Under the pieces are notes generated by a model, which saw only the letters and a list, made by a program, of their open reading frames with translations, searched no databases and was not told the DNA's origin. This document shows positions 23,212 through 43,777 of a stretch of 64,000 bases of DNA, piece by piece. Every line of letters begins with the position of its first letter. Positions within the stretch are counted from its first letter, which is position 1. This DNA is from Candidatus Zhuqueibacterota bacterium (lineage in GTDB: Bacteria > Zhuqueibacterota > Zhuqueibacteria > Thermofontimicrobiales > Thermofontimicrobiaceae). The stretch is taken from NCBI GenBank assembly GCA_049322915.1, contig JBMOPW010000032.1, forward strand, positions 1-64,000, given 5' to 3'. Position numbers and translations under genes: made by a program.

Positions 23212-23343
23212 GTCGTCCCGTTGAAGAGATGCGCCAATTGCTCCAGTTAGGTGATCTGTTTTAATTAAGAATTTAACGTCACACAAGATACATATATTAA
23301 GATGATAGAACACGATAGATCGATGTCAGGTGGGAAAAAAAGG

Positions 23344-24321: not shown

Positions 24322-24428
24322 AGATTAATCACACAAAATCTGATGCAGTTTGATCTGTTCTGAGCGACATAAGAAGGCTGTCGCCTGGAATAATACTAAT
24401 AATATGAAAGACCAGTAAAGAATTTTTT

Positions 24429-24566
24429 GGGCTAAAGCCGTAACCGTTTGGGATTCTGTAGCAAGCTCTCCGCCTTAAATGGCGGAGCTATTCATTAACT
24501 TTGACTAGCTCCGTTCTTTCAAAGGGAGTTCTTGATAATTCACCCAGAGATTTTAAACTTTGCCCA
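24429..24566. repeat. REP/REPIN-like nested palindromic element
   Basis: GGGCTAAAGCC (24429-24439); hairpin CTCCGCC-TTAAAT-GGCGGAG (24468-24487); degenerate inverted copy TAGCTCCGTTCTTTCAAAGGGAG (~24506-24528); degenerate AACTTTGCCCA at the right end. Confidence 0.55.
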
Positions 24567-24638
24567 GATGATATTTCAAAGTTATTCAACTGGTCCTTCA
24601 TATTAATAAATATTTCATTAATTCTAACAGGAGGGGTC

Positions 24639-25619: not shown

Positions 25620-25637
25620 TGGATATATGGTCGTCTC

Positions 25638-26195
25638 ATGCGGGTGATATCTGGATTTTATAAGGGTCGGGTACTTTTTAGTCCCAGGGGAAATTCGATC
25701 CGGCCTACATCCGATAGAATAAAAGAATCCATCTTTAATTATATTGGGACAGGCATTCAGGACGCGAAAATTTGTGACCTGTTCAGCGGCAGCGGCAATT
25801 TATCCATAGAAGCACTAAGTCGCGGCGCGAAAAATGCTGTCATGGTCGATCATTCGCAGCAGGCCATTGATCTGATGAAACGAAATATCAGCCACATCGG
25901 TGTGGTTGAAAAGTGCCGAATTGTGAAGATGGATACTCTTCAATATCTCAAACTGGCAGCAAAAAATGGAGAGGAGTTCAATTTTATCTTTGCGGATCCA
26001 CCCTATCTTAGCAGGCTGAATGAACCCATGATGCAACGCATTGTTGAAGGCAATCTGCTGACTGAAGGTGGATTATTCGTTTTGGAACAAAGCTCCCGCA
26101 ATGCCATTCCAATGGCGATTTTAGGCTTAATGAATATTGCTGAGAAAAATTTCGGAGACACGACAGTCATGTACTTTAGACAGGAGGGGACCTGA
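25638..26195 (+). CDS. rsmD: 16S rRNA m2G966 methyltransferase RsmD
   Basis: MRVISG, RPTSDRIKESIFN, DLFSGSG, EALSRGA, DPPY; adjacent to coaD. Confidence 0.94.
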   Translation: MRVISGFYKGRVLFSPRGNSIRPTSDRIKESIFNYIGTGIQDAKICDLFSGSGNLSIEALSRGAKNAVMVDHSQQAIDLMKRNISHIGVVEKCRIVKMDTLQYLKLAAKNGEEFNFIFADPPYLSRLNEPMMQRIVEGNLLTEGGLFVLEQSSRNAIPMAILGLMNIAEKNFGDTTVMYFRQEGT

Positions 26196-26196
26196 A

Positions 26197-26706
26197 ATGC
26201 GAACTGGGATATACCCCGGGACATTCGATCCGGTTACAAACGGACATTTAGATATTATCCATAGAGCTGTGCTACTTTTCGATGAAGTGATTGTGGCCGT
26301 GACGACCAATCCAGCCAAGTCGCCGCTGTTCACAATTCATGAGCGCATCGGCATGATTCAAGAATCGATTCCAAACCTGAAGGGTGTTCGTATCGAGAGT
26401 TTCGATGATTTGTTGGTCAACTACGCGTTGAAAAAAAAGGCGACTGCCATCATTCGCGGGCTGAGGGCCACATCCGATTTTGAAATTGAATTTCAAATGG
26501 CACTGGTGAATAGAAAACTGTCCGACGAACTGGTCACTGTATTTCTCATGCCTCATGAGAAATTCACGTATTTGAATTCGACAATCGTCAAAGAACTGGC
26601 CAGTTTCGATGGGGATGTCAGTTGTTTCGTGAGCCCGGAAGTGAACAGTCGGCTAAAACAAAAATTTCAAAATAGACGGCAGAGCTCTACGCATTCGTTA
26701 AAGTGA
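26197..26706 (+). CDS. coaD: Pantetheine-phosphate adenylyltransferase
   Basis: IYPGTFDPVTNGHLDII, IIRGLRA, STIVKE; RBS GGAGG before ATG 26197. Confidence 0.97.
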   Translation: MRTGIYPGTFDPVTNGHLDIIHRAVLLFDEVIVAVTTNPAKSPLFTIHERIGMIQESIPNLKGVRIESFDDLLVNYALKKKATAIIRGLRATSDFEIEFQMALVNRKLSDELVTVFLMPHEKFTYLNSTIVKELASFDGDVSCFVSPEVNSRLKQKFQNRRQSSTHSLK

Positions 26707-26762
26707 GAGTTTTAATTTTCCGATAATTTAAATGAATAACGTGCTAATTGTCTCGAGGATTT

Positions 26763-27896
26763 ATGATGGAAAACATTGGATTGAACAGCGAAGTTTTTGC
26801 AGGTGGAAAAAAATTCCATATTCAAACTCAGTACCTGGAACCAAATGAAAAAGTAGTGTCAACAATTTTTGATGATGGAAAGGTGACATTAACAAAATCG
26901 ATTGAATTAGCCACGAACGCTGGCACTGCCGAAATTAAACTTCAGGTCAACAAATTGCATCAGGATATGATTTCGGATATCGAGTTGTTGTTCTATATTT
27001 CTGATAAAGTCAAAATGATTGAGCACGCGATTTCGAACAACAAACTGGGATTAGTCTTTCTGAGCAAGAATTTAATCGATGAGGCGATGGGGGAATTCAA
27101 ACGGGCCATTGAAATAGATCCAGAATTTGTGGAAGCGTACAACAATCTTGGCCGTGCATACTTGAAACAAAAACAGTATCAGGACGCGATTGACATTTTA
27201 AATGCTGGTATTAAAACCAACCCGGATTACGCAGATGTGCATAATAATCTGGGCTATGTCTATTTCAGGCTGAATTATTACTCTGACGCTATCGCTGAAC
27301 TGCAGCGAGCGATCGAATTGAATTCTGACTATGTGGTTGCCATGTTCAACCTTTGCCTGGTCTATTTAAAAACCATTGTGGATGAGATCGGGGAGGATGA
27401 AAATTTACCGTCGATGGCAAAACGGATGGAAAAAATCAAATCACTTTTGATCGAAATAAAGGACAAGCGCCATTTCTTCAAACCGGAAAATATTGAAACA
27501 GTTCTCACCTATCTTGAAAATGAAAACATCGAGGAAGCGGTGAATGCTCTGGAGTTGGCGGAGTCCGAGCGCGCCGAGATCGTAGATTATGATTTTGAAA
27601 ATGAATTTTATTTGAAATTTATGTTTGGCGGTAAAGGCAAAGACGATGATTTTATTTTGGAGTACACGAACCAGTTGAAAGAAATAGTCAGAAAATATCC
27701 TCACTTTGCCGATTTGAGAAATAGCCTGGGCGTCGTCTATCTCATTCAGTGTCGAAATTTATTTTTAAATGCATTGGAAGAATTCCGTCAAGCGCTGAAA
27801 ATTAATCCAACATTTAAAAAGGCGGAAAAGAATCTCAAGCTGGCTGAGAATGATGGCAAAGGCTTTTTGATCTTACTTCGCGCCATTTTAAAATAG
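26763..27896 (+). CDS. TPR-repeat protein with N-terminal domain of unknown function
   Basis: Multiple TPRs (EAYNNLGRAY, ADVHNNLGYVY, ADLRNSLGVVY); N-terminal GLNSEV..GGKKFHIQT domain; no signal peptide. Confidence 0.8.
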   Translation: MMENIGLNSEVFAGGKKFHIQTQYLEPNEKVVSTIFDDGKVTLTKSIELATNAGTAEIKLQVNKLHQDMISDIELLFYISDKVKMIEHAISNNKLGLVFLSKNLIDEAMGEFKRAIEIDPEFVEAYNNLGRAYLKQKQYQDAIDILNAGIKTNPDYADVHNNLGYVYFRLNYYSDAIAELQRAIELNSDYVVAMFNLCLVYLKTIVDEIGEDENLPSMAKRMEKIKSLLIEIKDKRHFFKPENIETVLTYLENENIEEAVNALELAESERAEIVDYDFENEFYLKFMFGGKGKDDDFILEYTNQLKEIVRKYPHFADLRNSLGVVYLIQCRNLFLNALEEFRQALKINPTFKKAEKNLKLAENDGKGFLILLRAILK

Positions 27897-28796: not shown

Positions 28797-31700
28797 ATGA
28801 GGATACGACATCTAAGCGCAGGGATCATTTTGGTATTGATTTTCATCCTGTCAGGGAACGCATCGTCTTTATTGGCACAGGGAGCATTGTCAAATATCAC
28901 CACGACAATAAGCGATAATATCGTTGGCGCCACGGCAATCTATACCTTCACGTTCACGACGTCAGACACCGGCAATGGTGACGATCTTGGAAATGATGAA
29001 GGAATTCCGAGCGACGGAAAAATCAGACTCACTTTTGACAGCGGATTTGATTTTTCCGATCTCATTGTTGTCAATTCACAAAATAGCAATATGACCGGCG
29101 GATTGTCAATTTCGAGTATCATCGGAAATGTTGTTACCATTTCGCGGGATGGCACAGGAAATAATGTTCCTGTCTCCACGCCTGTGAGCTTAAGTCTGGG
29201 CACAATTGGAAACAGCTCGACAGCCGGAAATTATAATGTTGATATTATCACCATGACCAGTGGTGGCACCTATATTGATGCTGGTCCAACGCCAAATTTC
29301 TCGATAGTTGCTGGGACTATAGATCATTTCATTGTCAGTACAAGCGGAAATGCAACGGCTGGTTCTTCATTTGCGGTCATCATTACTGCGAAGGATGCAA
29401 ACAACAACACGGTGACATCGCATTCTGCAGCGGTTGCTTTGACTGATTTAACCGATACAATCACGCCGATCACATCAGGGAATTTTTCGGGTGGCGTGTG
29501 GAATGGTAATGTCATGTTCACGAAAAGCCGAACCGATAATAAAATCACAGCGACCTGGAGTGGGATTACAGGCATGTCATCGGAATTTGATGTGCTTCCG
29601 GCGGCGCTCCATCATTTTACTTTTACGACGATTACCAGCCCCAAAACTGCCAATGCTCCATTCAGTATTACTGTTACTGCTCGGGATGTGTACGAGAATC
29701 TTGTGACAAGTTATGTCAGTACGGTGACGCTGACAGACCTGTCCGGTTCTCTCAATATGACATCGAATAGTTTCAGCGCAGGAAGTTTGACGCAAAACGT
29801 GACTATCACAAAAAGTCAAACGGATGATTATATAACGGCGACCGGGAGTACAAAAACGGGCACGTCCAATTTGTTCAACGTGAATCCAGGCAGCCTGTCT
29901 AAATTTTCAATTGGAACCATTTCATCGCCTCAGACTGCCGAGGAGTATTTTTCCATTGCGTTAACCGCCCAGGATGCCAGCAATAATACAGTGACAAGCT
30001 TCAGCGGGACAGTGAATATCACGGACAAGAGCGGGACAATAACGCCCGGCGTAAGTCCAGGTTTCAGCGGCGGCAAGTGGAACGGGCAGGTCAAAATTTC
30101 CGATGACTATACGAACGATCAAATTACGGTAACGCGTTCTGGCGGGTCGGAAACAGGCACGTCGAATTCTTTCAATGTCTTGGTTGGCTCACTGGATCAT
30201 TTCACAATTTCAACGATTGCGACGCCGCAGATGGCCGGAGATGATTTTACAATTACGGTGACTGCCAAAGACAAGTCAGAAAATACAGTCACTTCGTACG
30301 CCGGGACGGCGACGCTCATAGACATCACCGGTACAATCTCGCCTCAGGTTTCAGGCAACTTCGGCAGCGGCGTATGGACAGGGGCTGTAACGATTTATGC
30401 CTCCGGCTCCGGCAATAAAATTATCGTCACTGGCAGTGATAAAACCGGAACATCCAACAGTTTCAATGTAAGCCCGGCCGGACTCGATCATTTTTCATTT
30501 TCTGAAATTGCCAGTCCGCAGATTGCCGGTGCCCCAATCTCCATGACCATTGAGGCGAATGATGCTTATGAAAATATTATAACAGGATTTTCCAGTACAG
30601 TCACCCTGTCGGATGAATCAGGGACATTGACGCCAACAACGAGCGGAAATTTCAGTTCCGGCGTCTGGACAGGAAGTGTCACGATTACCAAAGCTTATGT
30701 GGATAATAAAATCACGGCGATATCCACCGGTAAAAATGGCGTTTCAAATAATTTTAATGTGAATGCGGATGGGCTTGATTATATACTCATTCGGGATAAC
30801 CCGGGCGGCCTGGGAGCTGAAGTGGGCGATCTCACATTAAATTTCAACGATCAGGTGGTTTTGTACGCTGCCGGGTATGATCAATATGATAATTATATCA
30901 ATGATGTGACAGCGAATTGGGATACGGCCGGAACGTTGCTGGATATGCCGTCTCCATTGGTCGGGACAAGCACGACCTATCGGGTCGAAACGGTCAACAC
31001 AAGCAGCCAGGTGGGTAAAATCTGGGCCGTGAGCGGCGGCGAAGTCGATAGCACAGGAACGATCACTGTCGCTGAAATCGATCATGTTCTCATCCGCGAT
31101 GCGGACAATGGCGAGGGTAATGTCGTTGCATCCCGCACCATTTCCGCGGACGAGACGCTGACGCTTTATGCGGCAGCCTATGATGCCGGAAATAATTATT
31201 TAGGCCCGGCCGTGGTGAATTGGACCAATGATGGCACATTGACGCCGGCAATTTCATCCACGAATGCCACACTTGTTTTTCAACCGACCTCTGCGCCTGC
31301 GTCAGGAAAGATAATCGCCACCCATGCGACAGCGAACGATGACACGACCGGAATGGTAACTGTCGTTCCCGGAGTCCCGGTCGGCGAGATTGTATTGCAT
31401 CCAAATCCGAAAGTCGTCCCGGCGGATCCTGACACAGTTACGACTGTTTCGTCTGACCCAATTTCAGATAGCGATGGAAATGCAATTTCGAGCGGCGAAT
31501 ACTTCACAGTCAGTACGACGCTGGGGACTATCACTTCCGCCGACGCGAACCCGGGCATTGGGGGGACTCAGGTTGTGTCCAATGCATCCGGTCAGATTGC
31601 CTTCACGGTAAAAACAGGAGTGACTGGTGGAACGGCTTTGATCCAGGCGAATAGCGTCGTCCGGGGAACGGCTGCTGGCGATACGAGTGTTGTCATTACC

Positions 31701-34700
31701 GGAATCGAAATTCTATCCCTGTCGGTTGATTTCACAAAAGTGAGCCGAAGCCAGCAAGATATACCCGTGGATATGACCGTTCAAAATTGGGGAGCGACAG
31801 GGGCGACAATAATGACCGGAGGCGCTGGATTGAAGTTTACAGGCCCTGCTCCCGGCTATTCGAATCGCTCCGGGGATTATGTTGTCGTTCGCACAGATAC
31901 TTTTTCGGTGATTCCGGGGAATGGCATCAAAACGTTGAGTTTCCTTGTTGATGTGAATGCGAATGCATTGACGGATTCCATCGAGATCGACGGTTTTATT
32001 AATTGTAATGTGAATGGCTTCACTGTGGGGGATGAGTTCGCAAATGAAACGGATAAGTGGTTGGTTCAAACGCCGCCAGCGTTCAGATTCCTGCGCGTCA
32101 CTGCCGGGGAGGATACCGTCATTCAGGGGACAAATACGATAGTGAAGGCCACAATCAAAAATGACGGAGATGCAACGGCGCTCATTGATTCGGTGAGATT
32201 CATGTATTCAAACCTGACGCCGCCCATCCTGGATGTGACAGATGACTATGCGCTCGCGCCCTATCCAACGAATCCCGCTTCGATTGAGGGGCACAGCCTT
32301 GATAGCCTCTTTTTTACGGTCACCGTGGGTTCCAATGCGGCCGTCGACGACATTGGCATCGATGGCAAAATATTTGGAAGAGATCAAAATTCCGGTTTAG
32401 CTTATTCGGATATAAATGCAGATACCACGGATAGCTGGCATGTGAAACAAGCGTCGGATTTGGAGATCGTCGCTTTCAATCCCAGCCAGCGGACCGTAAC
32501 CAGCGGGCAGGTAGAGAATTGGTTTTTGGACATGGTGATTGACAACAATGGCGGGGCCAACTTGCGGCTGGATAGCGTCAGAGTTGATTTTACCTATGGC
32601 GGCGCTGATATTTCCAGTGAATACGCAACCGTATATCCTGATATATTTCAGACCAGTGGTGATAACTTGTTGAGAGCCGGGGCGATCGATACGCTCCGAA
32701 TTACCATTGATAAGACAGGGACCACAATCGGGGCGGTTACTGTCGGCGGGACAGTTTATCTGAATGACATGATCAGCGGACAGTTAATTAAAAGCAAACT
32801 CACCGGCGTCACGGTACAGGCGCCCGGCGCATTGACTATAAAATATATCAGATCGTCGCAGCCTGAAGTGACCACCGGCCAGACGCAGGACTGGAGCGTC
32901 AGTCTGGCGCTCACGAACAATGGCGGCGGGGACATTGCGATTGACACAACGCGTCTGGCTGATTTCTTCAATTTTGGCGCAGACCCGAACTACACAGTTC
33001 AACCGCCAGCATCGTTTGCCCATAGTGGAAATTTCGTGCTCGTGGCCGGGGCAACGGATAGTCTGATTTTTACCATTGATTCCACGGGTACCATAGCCGG
33101 TATGCGGTCGGTGAATGTTTCGGTCTTTGCAGAGGAAATAAACAGCCATGATCCAATCTCCATTGCCGGCGTCATGACGATTGAAGTTGAAATCCCGGCC
33201 AATATCCGAATTCTGAAGACAGTCAGTCTGGCGCCAAATGCGCCGTATGTGGATAACAATCAACTGTTCCAGATTGCGGTGCTGGTGCAGAACCAGGGTG
33301 GTGATGCCGCCAAAAATATTGAAATGTCGCTCGTACGGGATAGCACATCGACGATCTTGAATCCACAGGACACGCTCCCCATTGTTCAGGGAATGAGCAT
33401 CGATACGTTGAAATTCAATGTGCAGGCTTCCTCCAACTGGATCTGGGATGAAATTTTCACAGCGACGATCGATACTGCCACAGCAGAAAATACACTCGAA
33501 TCTGATAAAATAATCTTCAGTTCGCCAGTGGATTCTGTGGATACAACTGTGGTTCAGCGCCCGGCAAAATTTAAAATTGTTACTATTTCACCATCGCAGG
33601 ACACGGTGCGGGCATTGAGTCCTTACGAATGGCAAATCACTGTGGCGGTGGAAGACAGCGGCGCCGGTTACCTTCGGCTGAATCCGCCGGACGAGGAAGA
33701 TGTTACCATTTCCATCAATGGCCAAGCGCAGGACGATTACACGATTGTTCCGCCCAATGCTTTCGAGGTTCATCCTGATTTAATGTTATCGTGGCATGAA
33801 ACGGATGCGCTGGTTTATCGCGTGACAAGCACCGGCGTTTTAGGCGGATCGGCGCGAATAAAAATCAATTTGAGTGGACGTTATCTGAATTCGGATACTC
33901 CATTTCAGGTGATGGATTCCACGTGGATTTATATCCGACCATCGGCTGATGTATTTATCGACAAAACCGAGCCAGTCTGCCGAAACATCAATCAATATGG
34001 CATTGGTCAGGTGAACACCAGCCAGAGTTTTTCAGTGAAATCGAAAATCCGAAATACCGGCGGCGAGCAGGTGGACGATGTCGTCGTCAGTCTCACCGCG
34101 CCGGGCTACTCCATTCCGCCGGCGACGATAGATTACATTTTACCGTCCGGCGAGGCGCTAGCAACTTTCACTTTCAATGCGCAGGCAGTGGCTTCAGAAC
34201 AGGTGAAATTCACTGCGACAATTCTTTCCGCTGTTTCGCACGGCAGCGGTCTATCGGCCATTATTGGAGCCGCTTCAGATTCCACCGCGCTAGTCAGGGT
34301 GCATACGCCGGCGCTCATGCGGCTTTCCATTCTGACTGAAAACACAATTTTTTCGGTTGGACAGAGCGCCCCGTTCCAGGTCGAAGTCGAAAACTTAGGG
34401 ACTGCAGAAGCGGATGCCAGTGGCGAACTGGCGGTATTTATGCCTCAGGATTATTTCGTCTTAGCGAATGAAGTGCAGAAAGTATCCGATACCACATCGT
34501 TTGAAATTAATGAAACGATCACCTGGGAGGTTTTGCCTCCTTCGACCGAATCCATCGGTGACACGATTATAGTTAAAATTACGAAGCCGCCAGTGGATAA
34601 AAACACCGGCCTATTCGCATTAATAGAAAATACGGATCCGTTCGACTCCCTGGTCGTGAGAACGGTTCCCCTGGAACTCAGTCTGAATTCATTTGAAATT

Positions 34701-36905
34701 ACCTCGCCGGCCGGAGCGACGGATGATACATTATCGACGCTTCAAAATTTCTATGCCCAGGTCAATTTCACAAAGTCTGAAAATATCAGCAGCGTCACAG
34801 CGCGGCTGAAGGTGCCGAATGGATACACATTCGCTACTGGAACGGATTCCGTGAAGGCAAATATTACAGACTACGCCACATGGCGGCTCATTGCGCCTGA
34901 GGATGCTCGTTCGAATGAGGAGTTGATACGCGTGGAGGTGTCTGGCTATGTCGGAGCGGACTATGTCACTGCGAAGGATAGCATCTCGGTGGTCGTGGAA
35001 AACCGGGCTACATTACTGATTGATCGCCTGTGGATTTCCTGGCCGTCAACGGATAGCACGCTATCAATGAGCCAGGAATTTGATTTGAGCGCTATTGTCA
35101 TCAATTCCGGCGATGCGAAAATTGATGGTCAGACCAATTTGAAAATTGATTTTGGCGCAACCGGAGTCACAACCAGCGATGATGCCATAAAGGCTGCAAC
35201 TCCTGATATGCCTGTGACGTGGCGATTGCGCGCTCCGGCAGAGGAAAAATTGAAAGCGCCGATTGTTGTTTCCATTGAAACAATTCCCAGAGACGTGAAC
35301 ACAAATGAAAAAGCAGTGGTGACGACCCGCTCCAAATATTTCTATGTTCAGACACAGCAATCGGCGACGGCATCGATTGAAAACCTGAGAATAATTTCGC
35401 CGTCAGGAGCGATCGATAAAGTGTTCTCCACCTATCAAACCTTCCAGATTGAAGCGGATGTGAACTGGTACAACTGCACAACAGCGCCGTCTGTGCAGCT
35501 TCAGTTGGAAGGCGGCTTCACGACGCCTGAATCGTATCCAAAAGTTCCGAATGGTGTCGATGGCCAGGGAACCGTCAATTGGACAATCACAGCGCCGGGC
35601 AACTCCATTACAGACCAGAACATCTGGCTGAAGTTGACGGCTCAGGATGCTAACAGTCGCATTACATTTACGCGCACTTCGGACTCACTCGAAGTGGACG
35701 TGCTTCGGCGCGCGACGATTCAATTGAACGGAAAAATTAATTCACCAAAAAGCGCGCTGGATGGAATTGTCTCGACCAACCAAAATTTCGTGGTCTGCGC
35801 GAATTTATCCCGGTTCGGCGACGCTAATATTTTGGGCAATTTCAGCGCGACTCTGAAATTACCCAGTGGCCTGGGTTATTCAACGGCTCAGAATTTGACA
35901 CTATCAACAACGCACAGCGATTCTCTGTTCTGGACAATTACAGCGCCGGCCTCCGAACGTGTTCCCGACAATATTACTGTCACGCTCATTAGCTGGCCTG
36001 AAGATGAAAACACAAATCTCTCCATTGCAGCCGAAGCGGTGCTGTTAAAAAATGTCTATATTCCGGTTTCGACGGAAGAGAAAAGCGTGACAGTAGAGAT
36101 GCTGCCTCCGCCTTTGAAAAATACAATAGCCAGGGGAGACACCATGGTGTCTATGCTGGGGCTTGAATTGCTGGCCTCAGGCGATTCTTTTTCGAACAAT
36201 ATTCTGTTTACGGGCGTTAAAATTAGGCTGAAAGATCGCACGGGCGCCCTTATTTCAAATCCGGCGAAGGTGATTTCGCGGATACGAGTCGTGAATAATC
36301 AACAGAACTCTCAGATTTACGGACAGGTCACTTCGATCCCGACGAGCAATCCAGTTGAAATTCTGTTCACGCAGGTGGATACGCTGAAACCAGAAATTGA
36401 AAACCAGGTTCAGTTCAAAGTCGATATTGCTGCAAATTCGGAAATAAGCGATTTCCGGATGGCGATTGATTCTGTGACTTCACTCTATCTTTTTGATGAG
36501 GAATCCGGCCAGACACCGAAGCTGAAAAATGCGAGTGGCCAATCCCTGGAACTTCTCAATTTTGAATCTGAGCCGTCCGTGATCATTGAATCGAATTTCG
36601 ATAAAGCATTCAGCAATTACCCAAACCCCTTTGGCGAAATAAACCGGCCGGTGACAAACTTTGTTTATTATCTGGATGAAGATACTGATGTAAAAATCCA
36701 GATTTACACATTGATCGGAGAATTGGTGTGGGAGCGAACTTACACAGAGGCTGAATCCCAGGGTCGCGAGGGACTGCATGATTCGGATATAATCTGGGAT
36801 GGAAGAAATGGGCAGGGACATAAAGTTTTAAACGGTGTGTATGTCGCCAGAATTTCTACGGGCTATGGCAAAGCCGCTCTTAGAAAAATAGCAGTGATAA
36901 AATAG
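28797..36905 (+). CDS. 2702-aa multi-Ig-domain surface protein with T9SS type A/FlgD-Ig C-terminal sorting domain
   Basis: Signal peptide ending LLA-Q; Thr/Ser-rich tandem beta repeats; C-terminus FSNYPNPF...IQIYTLIGELV...WDGRNGQG..VLNGVYVARI...KIAVIK. Confidence 0.85.
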   Translation: MRIRHLSAGIILVLIFILSGNASSLLAQGALSNITTTISDNIVGATAIYTFTFTTSDTGNGDDLGNDEGIPSDGKIRLTFDSGFDFSDLIVVNSQNSNMTGGLSISSIIGNVVTISRDGTGNNVPVSTPVSLSLGTIGNSSTAGNYNVDIITMTSGGTYIDAGPTPNFSIVAGTIDHFIVSTSGNATAGSSFAVIITAKDANNNTVTSHSAAVALTDLTDTITPITSGNFSGGVWNGNVMFTKSRTDNKITATWSGITGMSSEFDVLPAALHHFTFTTITSPKTANAPFSITVTARDVYENLVTSYVSTVTLTDLSGSLNMTSNSFSAGSLTQNVTITKSQTDDYITATGSTKTGTSNLFNVNPGSLSKFSIGTISSPQTAEEYFSIALTAQDASNNTVTSFSGTVNITDKSGTITPGVSPGFSGGKWNGQVKISDDYTNDQITVTRSGGSETGTSNSFNVLVGSLDHFTISTIATPQMAGDDFTITVTAKDKSENTVTSYAGTATLIDITGTISPQVSGNFGSGVWTGAVTIYASGSGNKIIVTGSDKTGTSNSFNVSPAGLDHFSFSEIASPQIAGAPISMTIEANDAYENIITGFSSTVTLSDESGTLTPTTSGNFSSGVWTGSVTITKAYVDNKITAISTGKNGVSNNFNVNADGLDYILIRDNPGGLGAEVGDLTLNFNDQVVLYAAGYDQYDNYINDVTANWDTAGTLLDMPSPLVGTSTTYRVETVNTSSQVGKIWAVSGGEVDSTGTITVAEIDHVLIRDADNGEGNVVASRTISADETLTLYAAAYDAGNNYLGPAVVNWTNDGTLTPAISSTNATLVFQPTSAPASGKIIATHATANDDTTGMVTVVPGVPVGEIVLHPNPKVVPADPDTVTTVSSDPISDSDGNAISSGEYFTVSTTLGTITSADANPGIGGTQVVSNASGQIAFTVKTGVTGGTALIQANSVVRGTAAGDTSVVITGIEILSLSVDFTKVSRSQQDIPVDMTVQNWGATGATIMTGGAGLKFTGPAPGYSNRSGDYVVVRTDTFSVIPGNGIKTLSFLVDVNANALTDSIEIDGFINCNVNGFTVGDEFANETDKWLVQTPPAFRFLRVTAGEDTVIQGTNTIVKATIKNDGDATALIDSVRFMYSNLTPPILDVTDDYALAPYPTNPASIEGHSLDSLFFTVTVGSNAAVDDIGIDGKIFGRDQNSGLAYSDINADTTDSWHVKQASDLEIVAFNPSQRTVTSGQVENWFLDMVIDNNGGANLRLDSVRVDFTYGGADISSEYATVYPDIFQTSGDNLLRAGAIDTLRITIDKTGTTIGAVTVGGTVYLNDMISGQLIKSKLTGVTVQAPGALTIKYIRSSQPEVTTGQTQDWSVSLALTNNGGGDIAIDTTRLADFFNFGADPNYTVQPPASFAHSGNFVLVAGATDSLIFTIDSTGTIAGMRSVNVSVFAEEINSHDPISIAGVMTIEVEIPANIRILKTVSLAPNAPYVDNNQLFQIAVLVQNQGGDAAKNIEMSLVRDSTSTILNPQDTLPIVQGMSIDTLKFNVQASSNWIWDEIFTATIDTATAENTLESDKIIFSSPVDSVDTTVVQRPAKFKIVTISPSQDTVRALSPYEWQITVAVEDSGAGYLRLNPPDEEDVTISINGQAQDDYTIVPPNAFEVHPDLMLSWHETDALVYRVTSTGVLGGSARIKINLSGRYLNSDTPFQVMDSTWIYIRPSADVFIDKTEPVCRNINQYGIGQVNTSQSFSVKSKIRNTGGEQVDDVVVSLTAPGYSIPPATIDYILPSGEALATFTFNAQAVASEQVKFTATILSAVSHGSGLSAIIGAASDSTALVRVHTPALMRLSILTENTIFSVGQSAPFQVEVENLGTAEADASGELAVFMPQDYFVLANEVQKVSDTTSFEINETITWEVLPPSTESIGDTIIVKITKPPVDKNTGLFALIENTDPFDSLVVRTVPLELSLNSFEITSPAGATDDTLSTLQNFYAQVNFTKSENISSVTARLKVPNGYTFATGTDSVKANITDYATWRLIAPEDARSNEELIRVEVSGYVGADYVTAKDSISVVVENRATLLIDRLWISWPSTDSTLSMSQEFDLSAIVINSGDAKIDGQTNLKIDFGATGVTTSDDAIKAATPDMPVTWRLRAPAEEKLKAPIVVSIETIPRDVNTNEKAVVTTRSKYFYVQTQQSATASIENLRIISPSGAIDKVFSTYQTFQIEADVNWYNCTTAPSVQLQLEGGFTTPESYPKVPNGVDGQGTVNWTITAPGNSITDQNIWLKLTAQDANSRITFTRTSDSLEVDVLRRATIQLNGKINSPKSALDGIVSTNQNFVVCANLSRFGDANILGNFSATLKLPSGLGYSTAQNLTLSTTHSDSLFWTITAPASERVPDNITVTLISWPEDENTNLSIAAEAVLLKNVYIPVSTEEKSVTVEMLPPPLKNTIARGDTMVSMLGLELLASGDSFSNNILFTGVKIRLKDRTGALISNPAKVISRIRVVNNQQNSQIYGQVTSIPTSNPVEILFTQVDTLKPEIENQVQFKVDIAANSEISDFRMAIDSVTSLYLFDEESGQTPKLKNASGQSLELLNFESEPSVIIESNFDKAFSNYPNPFGEINRPVTNFVYYLDEDTDVKIQIYTLIGELVWERTYTEAESQGREGLHDSDIIWDGRNGQGHKVLNGVYVARISTGYGKAALRKIAVIK
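29319..30773 (+). repeat. Five diverged ~97-aa Ig-like intragenic repeats
   Basis: Units begin IDHF/LHHF/LSKF/LDHF/LDHF about every 290 bp and share F.I.ITA.D...N.VT.....V.LTD..G and G.SN.F.V. Confidence 0.8.
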
Positions 36906-36922: not shown

Positions 36923-38845
36923 ATGAGAATATCAAATTTCTTCATTGGAGTCTTCAGTTTTTTTCTGACATTTGGTTTGTTTGTCGGTATAGCTAATGGA
37001 GATGAAGGTTTTGCAGGGACGCAAAGCAATTTCAATCTCGGGGTCGGTGCCAGGGCTCTCGCATTGGGAAATGCCTATGTTGCTATGCCGTTCGATGCAA
37101 CCGCCGTTTATTGGAATCCTGCCGGACTGGATTACATTCAGAGAAAAAATGTGAGTCTGTTTTATACCAATTTATTAGCAGGCGCCAAATACTTTTATTT
37201 CGGCTATGCGCATCCAACAATAAATTTTGGTTCTTTTGGATTCGGCGTAATTAGTAGTGGCGTTGGTGATATTCAAGAAACGGATAGCTCCGCTCCCATT
37301 GAATTGGGGACATTTTCTTACTCTCAGCAGGAGTTTCTTCTGTCTTATGGAAAGCAGCTTCCCTGGAATATTGCGTTAGGCGTCAATTTAAAAATTGATC
37401 ATCAAAGTATACATGGACTTACAGATACAGGCGTCGGAGCAGATTTTGGATTTTTGTATCGGCCGAATTTTACAAATTTTCTTTTGAGCGGAGTGTCCGT
37501 AGGGTTGACTGCGCAAAATTTATTCGGACCGAGACTTAAACAGATTTCTGAAACTGACATTAGTCCAATAAATATCAGGATGGGATTTGCGAAACCAATT
37601 TTAACAAATGAATGGGGAAATCAATTCACGATTTTTATGGATTTTGAACAAAGTGAGTACGAGCCATTCAAGTTCCACACCGGCACCGAATATGTTTTCA
37701 ATAATTTTGCCATGCTTCGGGTTGGGTTGAATAACAATCAAATCGCGTTTGGGGCGGGTGCAGCGATCAGCATGTTCCAGATCGATTATATGTATGGCAA
37801 ATTTTCTGATAATCCATTTGACACAAATCATCGCATTTCCTTTAGCGTAACGTTCGGGAAGTCCAAAGATGAGCTGGTGAAAATTGCTGAGCAGCGCCGA
37901 CTGGAAGAGATTCAGCGAAAAGTCGAACAGCAAAGGATTTGGGAGCGCGATGAGAAAATTTCCGAGAGCATGGATCGAGGTAAGCAATATCTCGAAATTG
38001 AAGATTATGAACGGGCATTGCGCGAGTTTAATTTCATAACAAATTATGAAAGTGAAATGCCGAATTCAACGGTGATTGCTGAAGCTCGTAAATTGTCGGA
38101 GGAGACAACTCAAAGGAGAGACGATAAGCTTAAAAAGTCTTTCGATGAAATTCGAAGCCGGAATGAAGCGGAGAAAGAGCGGAAGGAATTAGACATCTTC
38201 CTCGACCGGCAATTCGATTTAGGGCTGTCTCATTATGAAGTCGAAGAATATGAAAAAGCCATTGCCGAATGGCAAAAAATGTTGGATCGCGATCCGAATA
38301 ATGTGCTGGCCAAAGAGTGGATTCCCAAGGCTCAGGCGGATTACGAAAAGAAAATATTGTCATTGATTAACCAGGCTGATAATTTCGCACGTAAGGGCCG
38401 GTACCTGGAAGCGATCAGCGTTTTGAATAATGCCCGGATGTTGAATCCGGACGAAAAGCAGATCAATGTCATCGACTCCCGCAGTAATTCCTACAAACAG
38501 CAAATGCAATTCGATGAGCTGTTTCAGCAGGGATATCGATATTACATCACCAAAGATTATGTCAATGCTATGAATTCGTTCCAGGAAGCGCTCAAGCACC
38601 GTCCTAACAATGAACAGGTGAAAAAGTTATATACCGATGCCGAGGCACGTGCCAATGCGAAGAAAATGCGTATGACGCCGGAGATGGCTAAAAAATATGA
38701 TCGGGGGATTAATTTGTACACGGCGGGAAAATATGAGGAGGCCATTCAGATTTGGGAAGAATTGTTATTGATTCAACCCTACAACAAAGAGATTTTAGAT
38801 ACCATCGACGGGGCCAAAGAACGAAGCCGACAGCAGAAGAAATAG
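36923..38845 (+). CDS. PorV/PorQ (UPF0164)-like outer-membrane beta-barrel fused to coiled-coil and TPR tail
   Basis: Signal peptide; GVGARALALGNAYVA..DATAVYWNPAGL; barrel ends at HRISFSVTFG, followed by ~330 aa of helical/TPR sequence. Confidence 0.8.
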   Translation: MRISNFFIGVFSFFLTFGLFVGIANGDEGFAGTQSNFNLGVGARALALGNAYVAMPFDATAVYWNPAGLDYIQRKNVSLFYTNLLAGAKYFYFGYAHPTINFGSFGFGVISSGVGDIQETDSSAPIELGTFSYSQQEFLLSYGKQLPWNIALGVNLKIDHQSIHGLTDTGVGADFGFLYRPNFTNFLLSGVSVGLTAQNLFGPRLKQISETDISPINIRMGFAKPILTNEWGNQFTIFMDFEQSEYEPFKFHTGTEYVFNNFAMLRVGLNNNQIAFGAGAAISMFQIDYMYGKFSDNPFDTNHRISFSVTFGKSKDELVKIAEQRRLEEIQRKVEQQRIWERDEKISESMDRGKQYLEIEDYERALREFNFITNYESEMPNSTVIAEARKLSEETTQRRDDKLKKSFDEIRSRNEAEKERKELDIFLDRQFDLGLSHYEVEEYEKAIAEWQKMLDRDPNNVLAKEWIPKAQADYEKKILSLINQADNFARKGRYLEAISVLNNARMLNPDEKQINVIDSRSNSYKQQMQFDELFQQGYRYYITKDYVNAMNSFQEALKHRPNNEQVKKLYTDAEARANAKKMRMTPEMAKKYDRGINLYTAGKYEEAIQIWEELLLIQPYNKEILDTIDGAKERSRQQKK

Positions 38846-41800
38846 GTGATTTTCGGAAGAGAGGATTTGTACGCTTTGAAAGCAGCAATTAAAGAAGAAA
38901 TAAAAGTTCCCGCGCACATAGATTACCTGGGCGAGTTACGTAACTTTGTAACAAAGACAGGTCGCAAACACAGTTTTCCGGATACGGTTGTAAATGCATT
39001 CAAACTGTGTATCGATGAGGCGGCGACAAACATCATCAAACATGCGTATCGCGACCATGATGGCATGATTACTATGCGCGTCATCGTTAAAAAAAACAGC
39101 ATGACAGTGGTGTTGGTTGACCAGGGAAAATATTTCGATCCGTCTCGTGTCGCAGATCCCGATTTGAAGCGATATATCGATATCGGCAAAAAAGGCGGCC
39201 TCGGTATTTTTATCATGCGCAAGCTGCTTGATGAAATTGAATATCATCATACCGAAGAGGGCAATGAACTCCGGCTGACGAAATACCGCGACAGTTCGTT
39301 TCGTAAGAAAAAAGAAATTCAGGCGCCATCGCTTGCTGTTAGCCTGAAGATGAGATATTCAATTATTTCAGCGGTTATTCTTTTTGTTGCCATCGCCATA
39401 GGTTACTTCTTCTATTTCTTCAAGCATGGAAATCAGGTATTGGATGAATTTGTCGCCATTGAAAGCCCGTACTGCCAGAACATCGCGCGAGCTATCATTG
39501 ACGATAATGATGAAGATCTGAAACGATTTTACGTGGCCCTGAAAGTCAATGAATTCAAGGAATCGCGCAGCGATATTTTCAGAATTTCTGTGACTGATAC
39601 AACCAATTACATCATTCATTCAACGGATGAAGTTTTATCCGGCCAGGAATTTAAAATACCCGCTGACCATTCAAAACCACGTCCCAATCTATATCAGTAT
39701 AAAACCTCCAAGGGAATTGAAGTATACAGTTTCAAGAGCAATGTGAATAACACTGCCGATCAAAAAGTTGGAAATATCTATTTAGAATTTCAAACCGATC
39801 TAGTGAGTCGAAAAGTCGCAGCGGTGCGAATCCGCGACCTTCTCACTGCGATCATGATTTTGCTCCTGAGCTATATGGGCGTGGCCGTTCTGATTTACCT
39901 CATCATGAATCCGTTTCGTAAGCTTTCGACCTGGGTGCGCGAATTGGGACACGGCGGCGACGTTAAAGATGAGATTGATTTTGACTCTGGTGATGAAGTC
40001 GGAGAGATCGCAAAGGCGTTCAGCGACATCACCGATAAATTTCGTCAGTCGCAGAAAAACCTGGCTGAACAGGAACGTATTCAAAAAGAGATGCAACTGG
40101 CTCAGGATATTCAGCAGACACTGCTTCCGTCGGAAACGCCAGTCCTGGAGGGGTATGAAATTGCATCCCACTATGAATCTGCCAAAGAGGTTGGCGGGGA
40201 TTATTTTGATTTCATTGAAGTGGATAAAGATACGCTTGGCATAGTAGTGGCGGACGTTTCCGGGAAAGGCGTCCCCGGCTCACTCATTATGACAATGATC
40301 AGAACGGCTTTGCGTACCGAGGCGCGTTCGATTCGGTCGGCTTCGGAGGTGTTGGCGCGGGTCAATGAGTTTGTCGTGAACGATATGAAAAAGGGCATGT
40401 TTGTCACTTTGTTTTATGTCATTATCGACTCAAAAAAGAGGCGGATCAACTACGCCAGCGCCGGTCACAACCCCATGATTCTGTACCGTCAGGGATCGAA
40501 AAAGACATATTACCTGAATCCGCGTGGATTTCCTGTGGGCATTTCCTTGCCGGATACTGAATTATTCAAACGATCAATTGAATCAGATACAATTCAATTG
40601 GCCGAAGATGACATCCTGATAATTTACACAGATGGCATTACCGAGGCGATGAATGGCCGGCGAGAGATGTTCAGCGAGGAGCGGCTGCAGGACGTGATTC
40701 GTAAGTCTGGTCACCTGCGGGCCAATGCATTTATTGATAAGCTCCGCGATGAAATACACTCGTTTACTGAGGGGTACGAACAGAGCGACGACATCACGGT
40801 TGTTGCAATTAAGGAGCAGAGCACGCCGGAAAAAATTGAATTGAATCGGGCTCAAAATGCTCATAAAGCAATTCTGGCCGGGAAAAATATCCGTGAAGCA
40901 TGCGAAGAATCGGGCATCACCACGTACGCTTATTACAATAAATATAAAAAAATCTTTGAAGAGGAAGGCATCGATGCCTATTCCATTGATGAAACAATTT
41001 CTGTTGAAGCAAAGCATCTGAGCATCGAAGAAAAGACCAAGATTTACGACATTATAAAAAAGCATCCTGAATTCGGCGCAAAAAGAATCAGCGAAGAATT
41101 AAATATTGAACTCTATGGTTTTACAGAAATAAACGAAAGCAGGATTTATGATGAGCTGGTCCGAAGTCGGTTAAATACGCGACAATTGCGGGAGGCCTAT
41201 ATTTCCCGTTCAGGAAAGAAGAAGAGGTTGAAGCCGCCCGGTACACCAATGTTAACATTGGATGGAAAAATTATTCTCAATCGCAATTATGAAGAGCCAT
41301 CTGCACCGACGCAACAGGAGGTGCCAAAACGAGTTCAATCCGAAGAAAAGAAAGAACCGTCGGCGGACCAGGTGCAAAAGGTCAGGAAGGTCAAGCAGGT
41401 TCGAGTACCCCGAGACCCGGATGACAATTTCTACCTCGAGAGTCTCATGACCATGCCAATCGAAGACCTGCTTAAAAAGGAACGGGATATGGAAGAGGTC
41501 GAGGAATCTGATACGGGATTGCAGGCCTCAGCCTTTACAGAAAAGAAGGGGGGTGTTGCGACAGAAAGCAAAATGCGGGAAGAATCAGCTGAAGAGACAC
41601 ACAACGACCTCTTTTTTGATGATGAAAAATCAGAGGAATCTTCCGATGATATAGATGTTGATTTCGATGATGAAACAGTGGAATATCAGCGGAAAGAACC
41701 TGCGCAACATGATGATGAAGGGCTGGAACATGATTTCAGCTTCAAAGATATCTGGGATGAACAGGGCGATGAGATTGAAGAACAAAGCCTTGATTCCGGC

Positions 41801-42772
41801 GACACGAAAAGACCGGCGGAGCAGGGAGCAGACTCCGATCTCAGTCCTGACAAAATAGAACTACCGGAGATGTCAATAGAGGACAATCGTGTTTCCAGAC
41901 GCGGGATCGATATCGAGGATTTGCTCGAAGAGCCGGACGATGCAAAGGCTCCCGATGAGTTAGGATTTGAAACGCTGATTGAGGAAGCGAGTTTTAAAAA
42001 CGATATTTTTCAGGTGGAACACACCGAGGAAAATGGCAATGGAAAATTAGAACTAAATGAACATACTTCCGGCGCCGAAGACGATGCTCTGCATGAGTTG
42101 GAAGCGCCAAGTTTTTTGAATGAGATTGAAGAAATTTCAATGGCCGATGAGGATGATATCCTTTCCGAGACTGAAATCGCAAGTGATGATTTCTCCTTCA
42201 ATGACCTGTTGGATGCAATTGAATCGGATATTTCTTTCTTTGAAAAAGGCGAAGCTCATGAGGACGAAGCCGAACTGGTTCTTGAAGGAAAACCGAAAAA
42301 TGCAGAGGCAAAACGAGCGTCTGAAGAAAAAGATTTTGGCGATTTTGTAGATCATGTGGCCGTTAAAAATACGGAGGACGTCAGACCCTTTCCTACGAAG
42401 CAGGATCCATTGCGCGAAAAGCATCTCATTCTGGGACTGAAATTCTATAACGAAAGAAATTATACCCAGGCGGTTGAGCAGTTCCTTCAGGTCACGAAAA
42501 TGTATCCTGATTTTAAGGAAGCGTTCAGTATTTTAGGCAATTCTTACTATCGCTCTAATCAATATGAGCATGCTGTAACAGCCTACAAACGCGTAAAGGA
42601 ACTGGATCCGAACGATACGGATGCCTACGAAAACACCGGGGTGATTTATGCAAACAATGGTAAATTCCGAGAAGCAATCAGAGAGTGGAAGCGGCTGATT
42701 GAAATCGATCCGGGTCGGGAAGATATTTTAAATCATATTACGAAGGCAGAAGAATTAATGAAAAAACTATAG
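38846..42772 (+). CDS. Membrane sensor: RsbW-type HATPase + 2 TM/periplasmic domain + HAMP + SpoIIE/PP2C phosphatase + HTH + acidic linker + TPR
   Basis: DEAATNIIKHAY, DQGKYFDP and GGLGIFIM (kinase); two TMs; DEVGEIAKAF (HAMP); VGGDYFD, ADVSGKG, SAGHNP, YTDGITEA and SDDIT (PP2C); C-terminal TPRs; true start may be TTG 38867 or 38876. Confidence 0.88.
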   Translation: MIFGREDLYALKAAIKEEIKVPAHIDYLGELRNFVTKTGRKHSFPDTVVNAFKLCIDEAATNIIKHAYRDHDGMITMRVIVKKNSMTVVLVDQGKYFDPSRVADPDLKRYIDIGKKGGLGIFIMRKLLDEIEYHHTEEGNELRLTKYRDSSFRKKKEIQAPSLAVSLKMRYSIISAVILFVAIAIGYFFYFFKHGNQVLDEFVAIESPYCQNIARAIIDDNDEDLKRFYVALKVNEFKESRSDIFRISVTDTTNYIIHSTDEVLSGQEFKIPADHSKPRPNLYQYKTSKGIEVYSFKSNVNNTADQKVGNIYLEFQTDLVSRKVAAVRIRDLLTAIMILLLSYMGVAVLIYLIMNPFRKLSTWVRELGHGGDVKDEIDFDSGDEVGEIAKAFSDITDKFRQSQKNLAEQERIQKEMQLAQDIQQTLLPSETPVLEGYEIASHYESAKEVGGDYFDFIEVDKDTLGIVVADVSGKGVPGSLIMTMIRTALRTEARSIRSASEVLARVNEFVVNDMKKGMFVTLFYVIIDSKKRRINYASAGHNPMILYRQGSKKTYYLNPRGFPVGISLPDTELFKRSIESDTIQLAEDDILIIYTDGITEAMNGRREMFSEERLQDVIRKSGHLRANAFIDKLRDEIHSFTEGYEQSDDITVVAIKEQSTPEKIELNRAQNAHKAILAGKNIREACEESGITTYAYYNKYKKIFEEEGIDAYSIDETISVEAKHLSIEEKTKIYDIIKKHPEFGAKRISEELNIELYGFTEINESRIYDELVRSRLNTRQLREAYISRSGKKKRLKPPGTPMLTLDGKIILNRNYEEPSAPTQQEVPKRVQSEEKKEPSADQVQKVRKVKQVRVPRDPDDNFYLESLMTMPIEDLLKKERDMEEVEESDTGLQASAFTEKKGGVATESKMREESAEETHNDLFFDDEKSEESSDDIDVDFDDETVEYQRKEPAQHDDEGLEHDFSFKDIWDEQGDEIEEQSLDSGDTKRPAEQGADSDLSPDKIELPEMSIEDNRVSRRGIDIEDLLEEPDDAKAPDELGFETLIEEASFKNDIFQVEHTEENGNGKLELNEHTSGAEDDALHELEAPSFLNEIEEISMADEDDILSETEIASDDFSFNDLLDAIESDISFFEKGEAHEDEAELVLEGKPKNAEAKRASEEKDFGDFVDHVAVKNTEDVRPFPTKQDPLREKHLILGLKFYNERNYTQAVEQFLQVTKMYPDFKEAFSILGNSYYRSNQYEHAVTAYKRVKELDPNDTDAYENTGVIYANNGKFREAIREWKRLIEIDPGREDILNHITKAEELMKKL

Positions 42773-42836: not shown

Positions 42837-42865
42837 TTGACTTTTAGTTATTTTTCAATTATATT
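42837..42865 (+). promoter_or_regulatory. Internal sigma70-type promoter for STAS gene
   Basis: TTGACT (42837-42842), 17 bp, TATATT (42860-42865). Confidence 0.55.
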
Positions 42866-42909: not shown

Positions 42910-43623
42910 ATGGAAGGAATTCAATTGTCTGTTAAACAAACAGGAGTTGACAATAATATTTCTGTGATTAAAGTGGGTGGGTACATTGATACGACGACTT
43001 CCGCAGAACTGGAGCACTCGCTTGAAGCATTATTGGAAGCTAATAATTATAACATCATTATTGATTTGTCCAATGTTGATTATATTAGCAGCGCCGGCTG
43101 GGGGATTTTTATAAGTGAGATAAAAGGGATTCGGGAAAAAGGCGGTGATCTGAAACTAATCGGTATGATCCCTGATGTGTATGAAGTTTTTGAATTGCTG
43201 GAATTTCATTACATATTAAAAGCGTTTGATACGATCGAAGAGGCGGTCGCCGATTTTGATAAAACAAGACCGCGGGGCGAATATCGTCCTGTCGCTCAAA
43301 TGAATCGTGAAATGGAATCTCAGAAGCCAGAACCACCTCACATTTTGCGCCGCGGCGATGATAATCGGGAGAGTGAAGAATATCTGGAAAAGATGATGAA
43401 GCCGGATGCGAGCGACAAGAGTGTCGAGGCCAAAATCAAAAAGCTGGTCATCGAAAATCCTGAAAATGGCAGTATTAAAATAATGCGGGAATTGAACTCG
43501 CCGGCGTACGGAAATCTCAAGCTGAGCTGGTTTCAGGTAGTGCGGTATTTGAAACAGATGAATTTGAATTCAAAGAAGAAACGGGTTGAATTCTTCCAGA
43601 GAGAAACATTTAAACGTAGCTAA
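42910..43623 (+). CDS. STAS (anti-sigma-factor antagonist) protein with C-terminal HTH-like domain
   Basis: IKVGGYIDTTTS, IIIDLSNVDYISSAGWG, GGDLKL, VYEVFELL; extra ~120-aa C-terminus. Confidence 0.88.
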   Translation: MEGIQLSVKQTGVDNNISVIKVGGYIDTTTSAELEHSLEALLEANNYNIIIDLSNVDYISSAGWGIFISEIKGIREKGGDLKLIGMIPDVYEVFELLEFHYILKAFDTIEEAVADFDKTRPRGEYRPVAQMNREMESQKPEPPHILRRGDDNRESEEYLEKMMKPDASDKSVEAKIKKLVIENPENGSIKIMRELNSPAYGNLKLSWFQVVRYLKQMNLNSKKKRVEFFQRETFKRS

Positions 43624-43657: not shown

Positions 43658-43690
43658 AGGAGTTTGTTATTATCTACAAACTCCTTTTTT
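43658..43690 (+). terminator. Intrinsic terminator closing the accessory locus
   Basis: AGGAGTTTGT/ACAAACTCCT 10-bp stem plus T run. Confidence 0.8.
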
Positions 43691-43777
43691 ATTATTGGAT
43701 GAAACTTCAAAGTATACTGATGATTGAAAAGATGTAAAGTGGATGTGTTGACAGGTGATATGGAAGAGGAGTGGACG

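Follow-up and report, generated by a model that had tools for sequence, protein, structure and literature searches.

Partner switching is textbook bacterial signalling; in the usual description, its end point is a sigma factor and its STAS proteins have a single domain. SypE, a soluble response regulator, has a central receiver (REC) domain between its kinase and its phosphatase. In eukaryotes, the DNA-binding domains of transposases have been domesticated in the Pax paired domain and in SETMAR, and CENP-B is said to have derived from pogo. In the SypE/SypA system of Vibrio fischeri, the STAS protein SypA is the downstream component, according to part of the source (PMC10120452). For the HenR/All4160 system of Anabaena, PMC13555669 describes a STAS domain that is fused to its own output domain and stands under a phosphatase and kinases, with no sigma factor. 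Here we analysed 64,000 nucleotides of a Candidatus Zhuqueibacterota bacterium (contig JBMOPW010000032.1, positions 1 to 64,000), referred to below as the window, in which a gene for a SpoIIE/PP2C-type enzyme carries a two-part helix-turn-helix (HTH) module. This module is very probably an anciently co-opted HTH pair, homologous to the DNA-binding head of IS481-type transposases and fixed in a membrane-spanning enzyme that combines an RsbW-type kinase with a PP2C phosphatase, throughout a KSB1/Calditrichota-type phylum.

A preliminary description of the locus had placed a region resembling the N terminus of IS481 transposases at 40880..41200. The three peptide stretches that it quoted are present at residues 679-711, 725-752 and 762-782 (nucleotides about 40880-41191), directly after the SpoIIE/PP2C domain. 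The location thus held, and the true extent is wider, covering 40847-41230 plus a basic stretch to about 41275. The resemblance was likewise confirmed by a significant profile match to the N-terminal region of the family. A segment of 127 residues (40850-41230) matched NF033577, the IS481 family transposase of NCBIfam, with an E-value of 9e-7 and 28.7 bits over profile positions about 11-113 of 284, and NF033577 was the sole transposase family among the three families listed for this segment at E <= 1. The curated cut-off of NF033577, 224 bits, was reached neither by the segment nor by the whole protein (24.6 bits). The Pfam matches of the module were also below threshold, namely HTH_28 (E 4.1e-4, 20.8 bits for a cut-off of 25), HTH_32 (5.5e-3, 17.7 bits for 33.7) and HTH_21 (5.7e-3). 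Distant versions of the same enzyme exceed the Pfam gathering thresholds, for example P0163 with 36.2 bits for HTH_28 and P0236 with 41.1 bits for HTH_32. We then compared a profile of 61 orthologous modules with a profile of 18 IS481-like transposase N-termini from the same phylum. They aligned in hhalign at 97.2 % (E 4.1e-11) over 105 colinear columns, which extend across both halves of the module, the first HTH (H1) and the second HTH (H2).

The module is followed by a basic tail and an acidic disordered tract in place of the DDE core of a transposase. The preliminary description had already stated that the DDE core and inverted repeats are missing and that the reading frame is intact, and our results agree. 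Pfam at E <= 1 gave no rve/DDE core family in the host protein of 1308 residues, and the match to NF033577 ends by position 114 of 284. Between 40300 and 41800, no inverted repeats bracket the module; there are two weak pairs only, neither of which flanks it.

We considered whether the module could be the scar of a recent insertion sequence (IS) or the product of a mis-assembled or chimeric open reading frame (ORF), for which nothing speaks except the sequence resemblance itself. A scan of a genome collection identified 63 loci in which the module has 53-93 % identity. Its frame and its position, residue about 660-750, are the same in every one of them, and the ORFs, where complete, have 1180-1488 residues. 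Its profile matched 157 of 167 genomes of the phylum and 103 of the 105 good-quality ones, mostly in single copy (these tallies include the unpublished genomes G088 and G164). A region search returned 295 proteins with the host architecture, and the named ones are SpoIIE family phosphatases or tetratricopeptide repeat (TPR) proteins of candidate division KSB1, Calditrichaeota and others. Compared with the window copy, 55 full-length orthologues had a mean identity of 0.75 in H2 and 0.60 in H1, next to 0.76 in PP2C, 0.73 in the kinase, 0.25 in the periplasmic region and 0.14 in the acidic tract. The ratio of nonsynonymous to synonymous substitution rates (dN/dS; Nei-Gojobori, six pairs with unsaturated dS) was 0.028-0.116 in the module, 0-0.074 in PP2C and 0.18-0.32 in the acidic tract. 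The preliminary description had named absence from orthologues as a sign of a recent IS scar. The occurrence of the module in orthologues and a purifying selection like that on PP2C indicate a long-fixed functional domain instead. A scar or chimera is also contradicted by the lack of flanking inverted repeats and by a G+C content of 0.41-0.44 at the module against 0.42-0.50 over the remaining gene, without a break. Together with the dN/dS of 0.03-0.12 and the conserved position, these observations leave this explanation practically no room.

The AlphaFold2 (AF2) model of the module (mean predicted local distance difference test, pLDDT, 85.8) contains three helices, an ill-defined linker and four helices. 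The helices of H1 are at module positions 2-9, 14-21 and 25-39, and H2 reaches a pLDDT of 93-97. A sequence search of the PDB with the module gave nothing significant (best E 0.39), and Foldseek with the two-domain model gave no PDB match at E <= 0.001. The whole model superimposes poorly in Foldseek, probably because of the flexible linker. The weak Foldseek matches include TnsB, Pax5/6, the RED subdomain of Sleeping Beauty, ISCth4 and SETMAR.

The wider relatives of the module bear on where it came from. A profile search of 1.84 billion representative proteins gave 244 matches at E <= 0.001. From 150 listed matches, we scanned the 50 picked as not plain orthologues with Pfam at E <= 1e-5. 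Thirteen of these contain SpoIIE (two of them also STAS), three are STAS proteins with the C-terminal domain, ten have tandem HTH modules fused to family-2 glycosyltransferases, 20 are HTH-only proteins and four had no informative match. None of the 50 contains a DDE domain. Each glycosyltransferase fusion (P0215, P0221, P0228, P0245, P0250, P0259-P0261, P0265 and P0266) has two tandem HTH_28-HTH_32 modules, and of three looked up, two are named Patescibacteria and one Bathyarchaeia. We rejected the fusions of Patescibacteria as close functional relatives because they come from another phylum, consist of tandem full modules and lack STAS and PP2C. The distant versions of the enzyme carry the names Caldithrix or Calditrichota, the giant ones among them keep only H2, and two fragments of distant versions are labelled 'transposase' by JGI. 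The module therefore belongs to a part of the HTH_28-HTH_32 superfamily whose members serve for the most part in proteins other than those of transposons.

Such relatives allow a different history without any domestication, in which the module comes from an old pool of cellular HTH_28/HTH_32 proteins that transposases also tapped. Its best non-orthologous relatives are indeed not transposases, as seen from the small tandem HTH proteins, the glycosyltransferase fusions and the absence of rve from the 50 proteins scanned. A word-based search for shorter relatives returned eight fragments of the same enzyme and no transposase, and none of the six genomes in the window's own family has an IS481-like transposase at E <= 1e-20. 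We nevertheless consider this history improbable in view of the colinear H1-linker-H2 match to real DDE transposases over 105 columns and of IS481 being the only transposase family matched in NCBIfam. Likewise, 48 of 121 phylum genomes harbour IS481-like elements, and structural neighbours of the H2 copy described below include transposase clusters. The window's genome has seven weak matches to IS481 transposases, all below the cut-off, and no full element, so it offers no local donor. Its sole IS481-like remnant, on contig 4 at 161541-161986, has an in-frame TAA stop and matches with E 8.1e-10, below the family cut-off.

The preliminary description had claimed that a transposase module was co-opted into a membrane signalling enzyme. 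Homology and conservation support the co-option. Because the relatives lie mostly outside transposons, the direction from transposase to host gene is one that we infer, from the colinear two-part layout, and the 50 relatives without a DDE domain count against it.

The host had been called a sensor phosphatase, which is correct for its PP2C domain and incomplete for the protein. Its N-terminal domain is RsbW-like (NCBIfam, E 1.6e-20; HATPase_c_2 in Pfam), and this finding makes the host a fused kinase and phosphatase rather than a phosphatase alone. From the N to the C terminus, the order is an RsbW-like serine kinase, a transmembrane segment, a variable periplasmic region, a second transmembrane segment, HAMP, PP2C, the two-part HTH module, the acidic disordered tract and TPR repeats. 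The variable region is flanked by two hydrophobic segments and precedes HAMP (residues 349-392, Pfam). In all 56 sequences compared, the kinase residues E58 and N62 and the GGLG box (N and G boxes) are invariant, as are the metal-binding aspartates D452, D470, D596, D648 and D649 of PP2C. The acidic tract has a mean net charge of -76 (range -42 to -133) in 55 orthologues at an identity of 0.14, so that selection seems to act on its charge and not on its sequence. A public protein of identical sequence has 1301 residues, which suggests that the true start may lie seven codons downstream. Public annotation of the family is limited to 'SpoIIE family protein phosphatase' or 'tetratricopeptide repeat protein'.

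The likely function of the module changes with the finding that H2 recurs in a partner of the enzyme. The C-terminal 70 residues of the STAS protein encoded downstream are homologous to the enzyme H2 (BLASTP E 1e-5). A profile of 61 STAS C-termini aligned with the profile of orthologous modules in hhalign at 96.9 % (E 2e-10), and weakly with that of the transposase N-termini (13 %, E 2e-3). In the AF2 model of the STAS protein, a disordered linker (121-167) separates the STAS core (1-118) from a four-helix domain (169-235, pLDDT 85-90). An alignment of 61 STAS sequences shows the phosphorylation motif Ser60-Ser61 to be invariant and the start to be conserved too. In the window's genome of 6.25 Mb, the enzyme profile finds exactly three proteins: the enzyme, its STAS neighbour and another STAS protein, encoded on contig 14. 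Directly downstream of the enzyme, a gene for a STAS protein with the H2-type domain (STAS-H2) is present in 59 of the 63 loci. The remainder are three contig ends and one complete locus, L057, which has no STAS-H2 ORF within 500 nucleotides downstream of the enzyme gene. By tblastn, the STAS protein was found in 60 of the 63 loci, and the enzyme-H2 profile alone matched 33 of 63 downstream ORFs at E < 0.01. Over the phylum, the STAS C-terminal domain occurs in 165 of 167 genomes and in all 105 good-quality ones, usually with two or three matches each.

A search of the ESM Atlas with the STAS H2 gave structural neighbours that can be taken as leads only, in the form of predicted clusters of orthologous STAS proteins and enzymes and of HTH_28+rve_3 and rve transposases; in one enzyme cluster the commonest phylum is Zixiibacteriota. 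A maximum-likelihood phylogeny built from 67 columns of 72 H2 domains placed the 18 transposase rows apart from the host rows (support 93/96) and grouped the enzyme H2 domains (95/91) as well as all STAS H2 domains (92/93). The alignment is short and the tool warned of long branches. With that limit, the tree is consistent with one capture that may have been followed by a duplication between enzyme and substrate.

Since the catalytic motifs and the STAS serines are invariant, a working pair of kinase/phosphatase and STAS protein is the natural reading. Moreover, the confinement of H2 in the genome to the enzyme and two STAS proteins suggests that H2 most likely serves to bring them together. 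We therefore propose, tentatively and at somewhat less than even odds, that H2 is an address tag shared by the enzyme and its STAS substrates. H2 would bring the two together in one of two ways: the module might bind the STAS H2 directly, or both might attach to one common nucleic acid or acidic partner. Whether the conserved serine of the STAS protein is phosphorylated would then depend on the kinase and the phosphatase, and the STAS-H2 proteins, not a sigma factor, would be the probable output, comparable to SypA under SypE or to the STAS-fused glycosyltransferase All4160 under HenR. The substrate relation, the pairing and the output are all deduced from the conserved features above. For the statement as a whole, identity plus mechanism, we estimate a probability of roughly 0.45.

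Docking decides the specificity of PPM-STAS pairs, as stated in a portion of PMC11418112. Several points weigh against the proposed tag. According to the same portion of PMC11418112, the published pairs dock through loops of the phosphatase domain itself, which would make an extra tag unneeded. In a mirror-tree comparison, the residual correlation of the STAS H2 was 0.30 with the enzyme H2, 0.53 with H1 and 0.57 with the TPR repeats; relatedness and the saturation of conserved domains confound these values. Finally, a generic DNA-binding three-helix fold of H2 together with a basic STAS copy would suit plain DNA binding as well as docking.

The last point leads to a reading in which the module binds DNA. 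The enzyme would then be a site-specific membrane-bound regulator of the ToxR/CadC kind or a chromosomal tether, the STAS-H2 proteins would be phospho-switchable transcription factors, and the shared H2 would mean a shared DNA target. The homology to a transposase DNA-binding head fits such a role, and the structural neighbours of H2 in VIA-align are nearly all DNA-binding domains. The VIA-align matches were all on H2, with H1 barely covered, and comprised generic three-helix DNA-binding folds at Z 5.0-5.7, such as LUX ARRHYTHMO (Z 5.7), Tc3 transposase (Z 5.4, root-mean-square deviation 3.0 over 50 residues), ArgR and the sigma-54 RpoN domain. All scores are under 8, a range in which a match may be just a common helical arrangement. 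Basic tails are found on the enzyme module (mean net charge +4.0 at module positions 112-127) and on the STAS H2-type domain (+4.7, in addition to +3.1 for the domain itself). Furthermore, the two STAS-H2 genes open or close conserved clusters of surface and polysaccharide genes, and these clusters are possible regulons. On the other hand, H1 of the enzyme is near neutral, with a mean net charge of -0.6 compared with +3.9 in the transposase H1 (about 4.5 fewer positive charges), and the core H2 has -0.1. The charge comparison as such does not separate DNA binding from docking, because the transposase H2 is itself near neutral (+0.2). In each of the 55 orthologues measured, the module is followed by the tract of about -76, which would repel DNA or compete with it. 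When the intergenic DNA ahead of the STAS gene was read by eye, a sigma-70-like promoter motif was all that stood out, with no conserved operator or palindrome; conserved bases flanking this promoter could hide an operator. We regard DNA binding as a serious rival to docking, although rather unlikely on balance as the role of the module.

Alternatively, the module could be an intramolecular regulatory or dimerisation domain, like the N-terminal domain of RsbU, which balances the phosphatase against the kinase; the STAS H2 would in that case be a separate output domain sharing nothing but ancestry. Its place directly after PP2C, with equal conservation, agrees with such a function, as do the co-variation of H1 with the TPR repeats (partial r 0.68) and the retention of H2 alone in the distant giant enzymes. 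This explanation does not account for the fact that, besides the enzyme, precisely its substrates and nothing else in the genome have H2. The predicted template modelling score (pTM) of 0.56 and the low-confidence linker also suggest two independent subdomains and not a packed unit, and we judge an intramolecular role to be quite improbable.

In the window, the cluster runs from a giant protein through a PorV/PorQ-family protein and the enzyme to STAS-H2 (Table 1). The PorV/PorQ-family protein is conserved with the enzyme in 57 of the 63 loci and the C-terminal part of the giant protein in 52, while the downstream metH is in just three. The last ~90 residues of the giant protein resemble a type IX secretion C-terminal sorting domain, with no detection by Pfam or NCBIfam; such an end would suit the PorV/PorQ-family neighbour. 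The sigma-70-like pattern is conserved across genera: 48 of 59 orthologous loci have it in front of the STAS gene, and none of 13 loci has it upstream of the orphan paralogue. The latter, the second STAS-H2 gene on contig 14 (about 218462-219190), lies between a GlgA-like gene and Poly_export/SLBB plus Wzz, an order repeated in 12 of 12 other phylum genomes sampled. A sigma-54-type -24/-12 motif (TGGCA[CT]-N5-TTGC) occurs about 107 nucleotides upstream of the orphan in 9 of 13 loci if the pattern is strict and in 11 of 13 if it is relaxed, and in none of the 59 regions upstream of the operon-linked STAS gene. No sigma-factor gene was found among the neighbours examined. Further upstream in the window, PilM-like, pseudopilin-like and Tgl/PilW-like ORFs (22315-27896), in a region that also contains an unassigned ORF of 372 residues, suggest that genes for a pilus-like or secretion apparatus may adjoin the surface-protein cluster.

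Table 1. Positions of the host gene, its domains and the neighbouring features in the window.
Feature	Residues	Nucleotides	Strand	Evidence or remark
ORF with weak pseudopilin-like N terminus		22315-23211		GspG E 7e-4
PilM-like protein		23302-24321		Pfam PilM_2 E 3.9e-20
Tgl/PilW-like TPR protein		26748-27896		
Giant surface-type protein, conserved upstream neighbour	2702 in total	28797..36905	+	CARDB sole match
PorV/PorQ-family outer-membrane protein with TPR repeats, conserved upstream neighbour		36923..38845	+	NF033709 135.8 bits (cut-off 90)
Host gene, uninterrupted ORF	1308 in total	38846..42772	+	ORF list, Pfam, NCBIfam
HATPase_c_2 (RsbW/SpoIIAB-type serine kinase)	22-146	38909..39283	+	Pfam E 2.2e-27
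SpoIIE/PP2C phosphatase domain	461-656	40226..40813	+	Pfam E 2.1e-51
Two-part HTH module	668-795	40847..41230	+	NCBIfam NF033577, Pfam, hhalign, AF2
H1, first HTH (HTH_28-like, three helices)	668-714	40847..40987	+	HTH_28 E 4.1e-4; AF2; hhalign to transposase H1
H2, second HTH (HTH_32/HTH_21-like), the part shared with STAS proteins	723-790	41012..41215	+	AF2, conservation, hhalign
Conserved basic tail after H2	791-810	41216..41275	+	Identity 0.72 over residues 781-810
Acidic disordered tract	about 870-1180	41453..42385	+	Net charge -77 in the window copy
C-terminal TPR repeats	about 1190-1300	42413..42745	+	Pfam TPR families
Sigma-70-like promoter before the STAS gene, TTGACT-17-TATATT, with A/T-rich stretch upstream		42837..42865	+	10/12 matches
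STAS protein (anti-sigma-antagonist type), from conserved ATG	237 in total	42910..43623	+	Pfam STAS E 2.4e-18
H2-type domain of STAS protein		43414..43614	+	BLASTP to enzyme module E 1e-5; hhalign
Terminator-like hairpin with T run, closing the cluster after the STAS gene		43658..43695	+	Sequence

A more speculative model, which we think unlikely to be right in full, goes further. The STAS-H2 proteins would be phosphorylation-switched nucleic-acid-binding regulators with a transposase-derived head, acting in a partner-switching pathway that is free of sigma factors and near-universal in the phylum. The head of the enzyme together with the tract of -76 would form a docking site, or a decoy mimicking DNA, that retains the basic STAS-H2 at the membrane as long as no periplasmic signal reverses the balance of kinase and phosphatase. 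The pathway would control the cluster of the giant surface protein and PorV as well as the sigma-54-driven polysaccharide-export operon. The links to a giant surface protein, a PorV-type partner and a polysaccharide-export operon point to control of the cell surface.

Fused kinase/phosphatase enzymes of partner switches are already known, and so are domesticated DNA-binding heads of transposases. What is new is the combination of both, plus a domain shared by an enzyme and its substrates. Full-text searches of the literature gave no paper on a transposase-type HTH in any PP2C or STAS protein, nor on this KSB1/Calditrichota system, and the terms 'DNA-binding' and 'helix-turn-helix' are absent from a review of STAS-only proteins. 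A phylum with almost no cultured members keeps a partner switch in which a domain of transposase ancestry is common to the enzyme and its substrates. It would be a clear bacterial case of the reuse of transposase heads that is well known in eukaryotes. If H2 is a docking tag, it would represent a new way of wiring the specificity of kinases and phosphatases, and if it binds DNA, a direct route from a membrane sensor to a gene without a sigma factor.

Compared with the systems described to date, the module has the same colinear layout as the N terminus of IS481-family transposases, in which two three-helix HTH subdomains (HTH_28/HTH_23, then HTH_32/HTH_21) are joined by a linker. Unlike those transposases, it has no DDE/rve core and no inverted repeats, it is present in single copy at a fixed position, and its H1 is less positive. 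The enzyme resembles SypE, as presented in parts of PMC10120452 and PMC8256260, in uniting an RsbW-type kinase and PP2C on one polypeptide that acts, here putatively, on a STAS protein. A polysaccharide connection is also shared with SypE/SypA (PMC10120452); here, in all 12 genomes sampled, Poly_export and Wzz come after the second STAS-H2 gene. In contrast to SypE, the host shows no Response_reg match and has two transmembrane segments, a periplasmic region and HAMP between kinase and phosphatase. The parts used of PMC10120452 and PMC8256260 contain no mention of an HTH module, an acidic tract or TPR for SypE, or of a C-terminal domain for SypA. With RsbU/RsbW/RsbV and SpoIIE/SpoIIAB/SpoIIAA, as covered in the portion of PMC11418112 cited above, the locus has in common the same three families, intact motifs and a conserved phosphorylatable serine. 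It differs from them in the fusion of kinase and phosphatase, in a cluster without a sigma-factor gene and in the HTH-type domain added to both enzyme and substrate. All4160 has a glycosyltransferase as its output according to PMC13555669, whereas the STAS protein here carries a transposase-type HTH, which is also on the enzyme. The eukaryotic examples are nuclear DNA-binding proteins, unlike the present host, a bacterial membrane kinase/phosphatase with putative DNA binding. As in those examples, the two-part HTH head of a DDE transposase appears to have been reused by a host protein.

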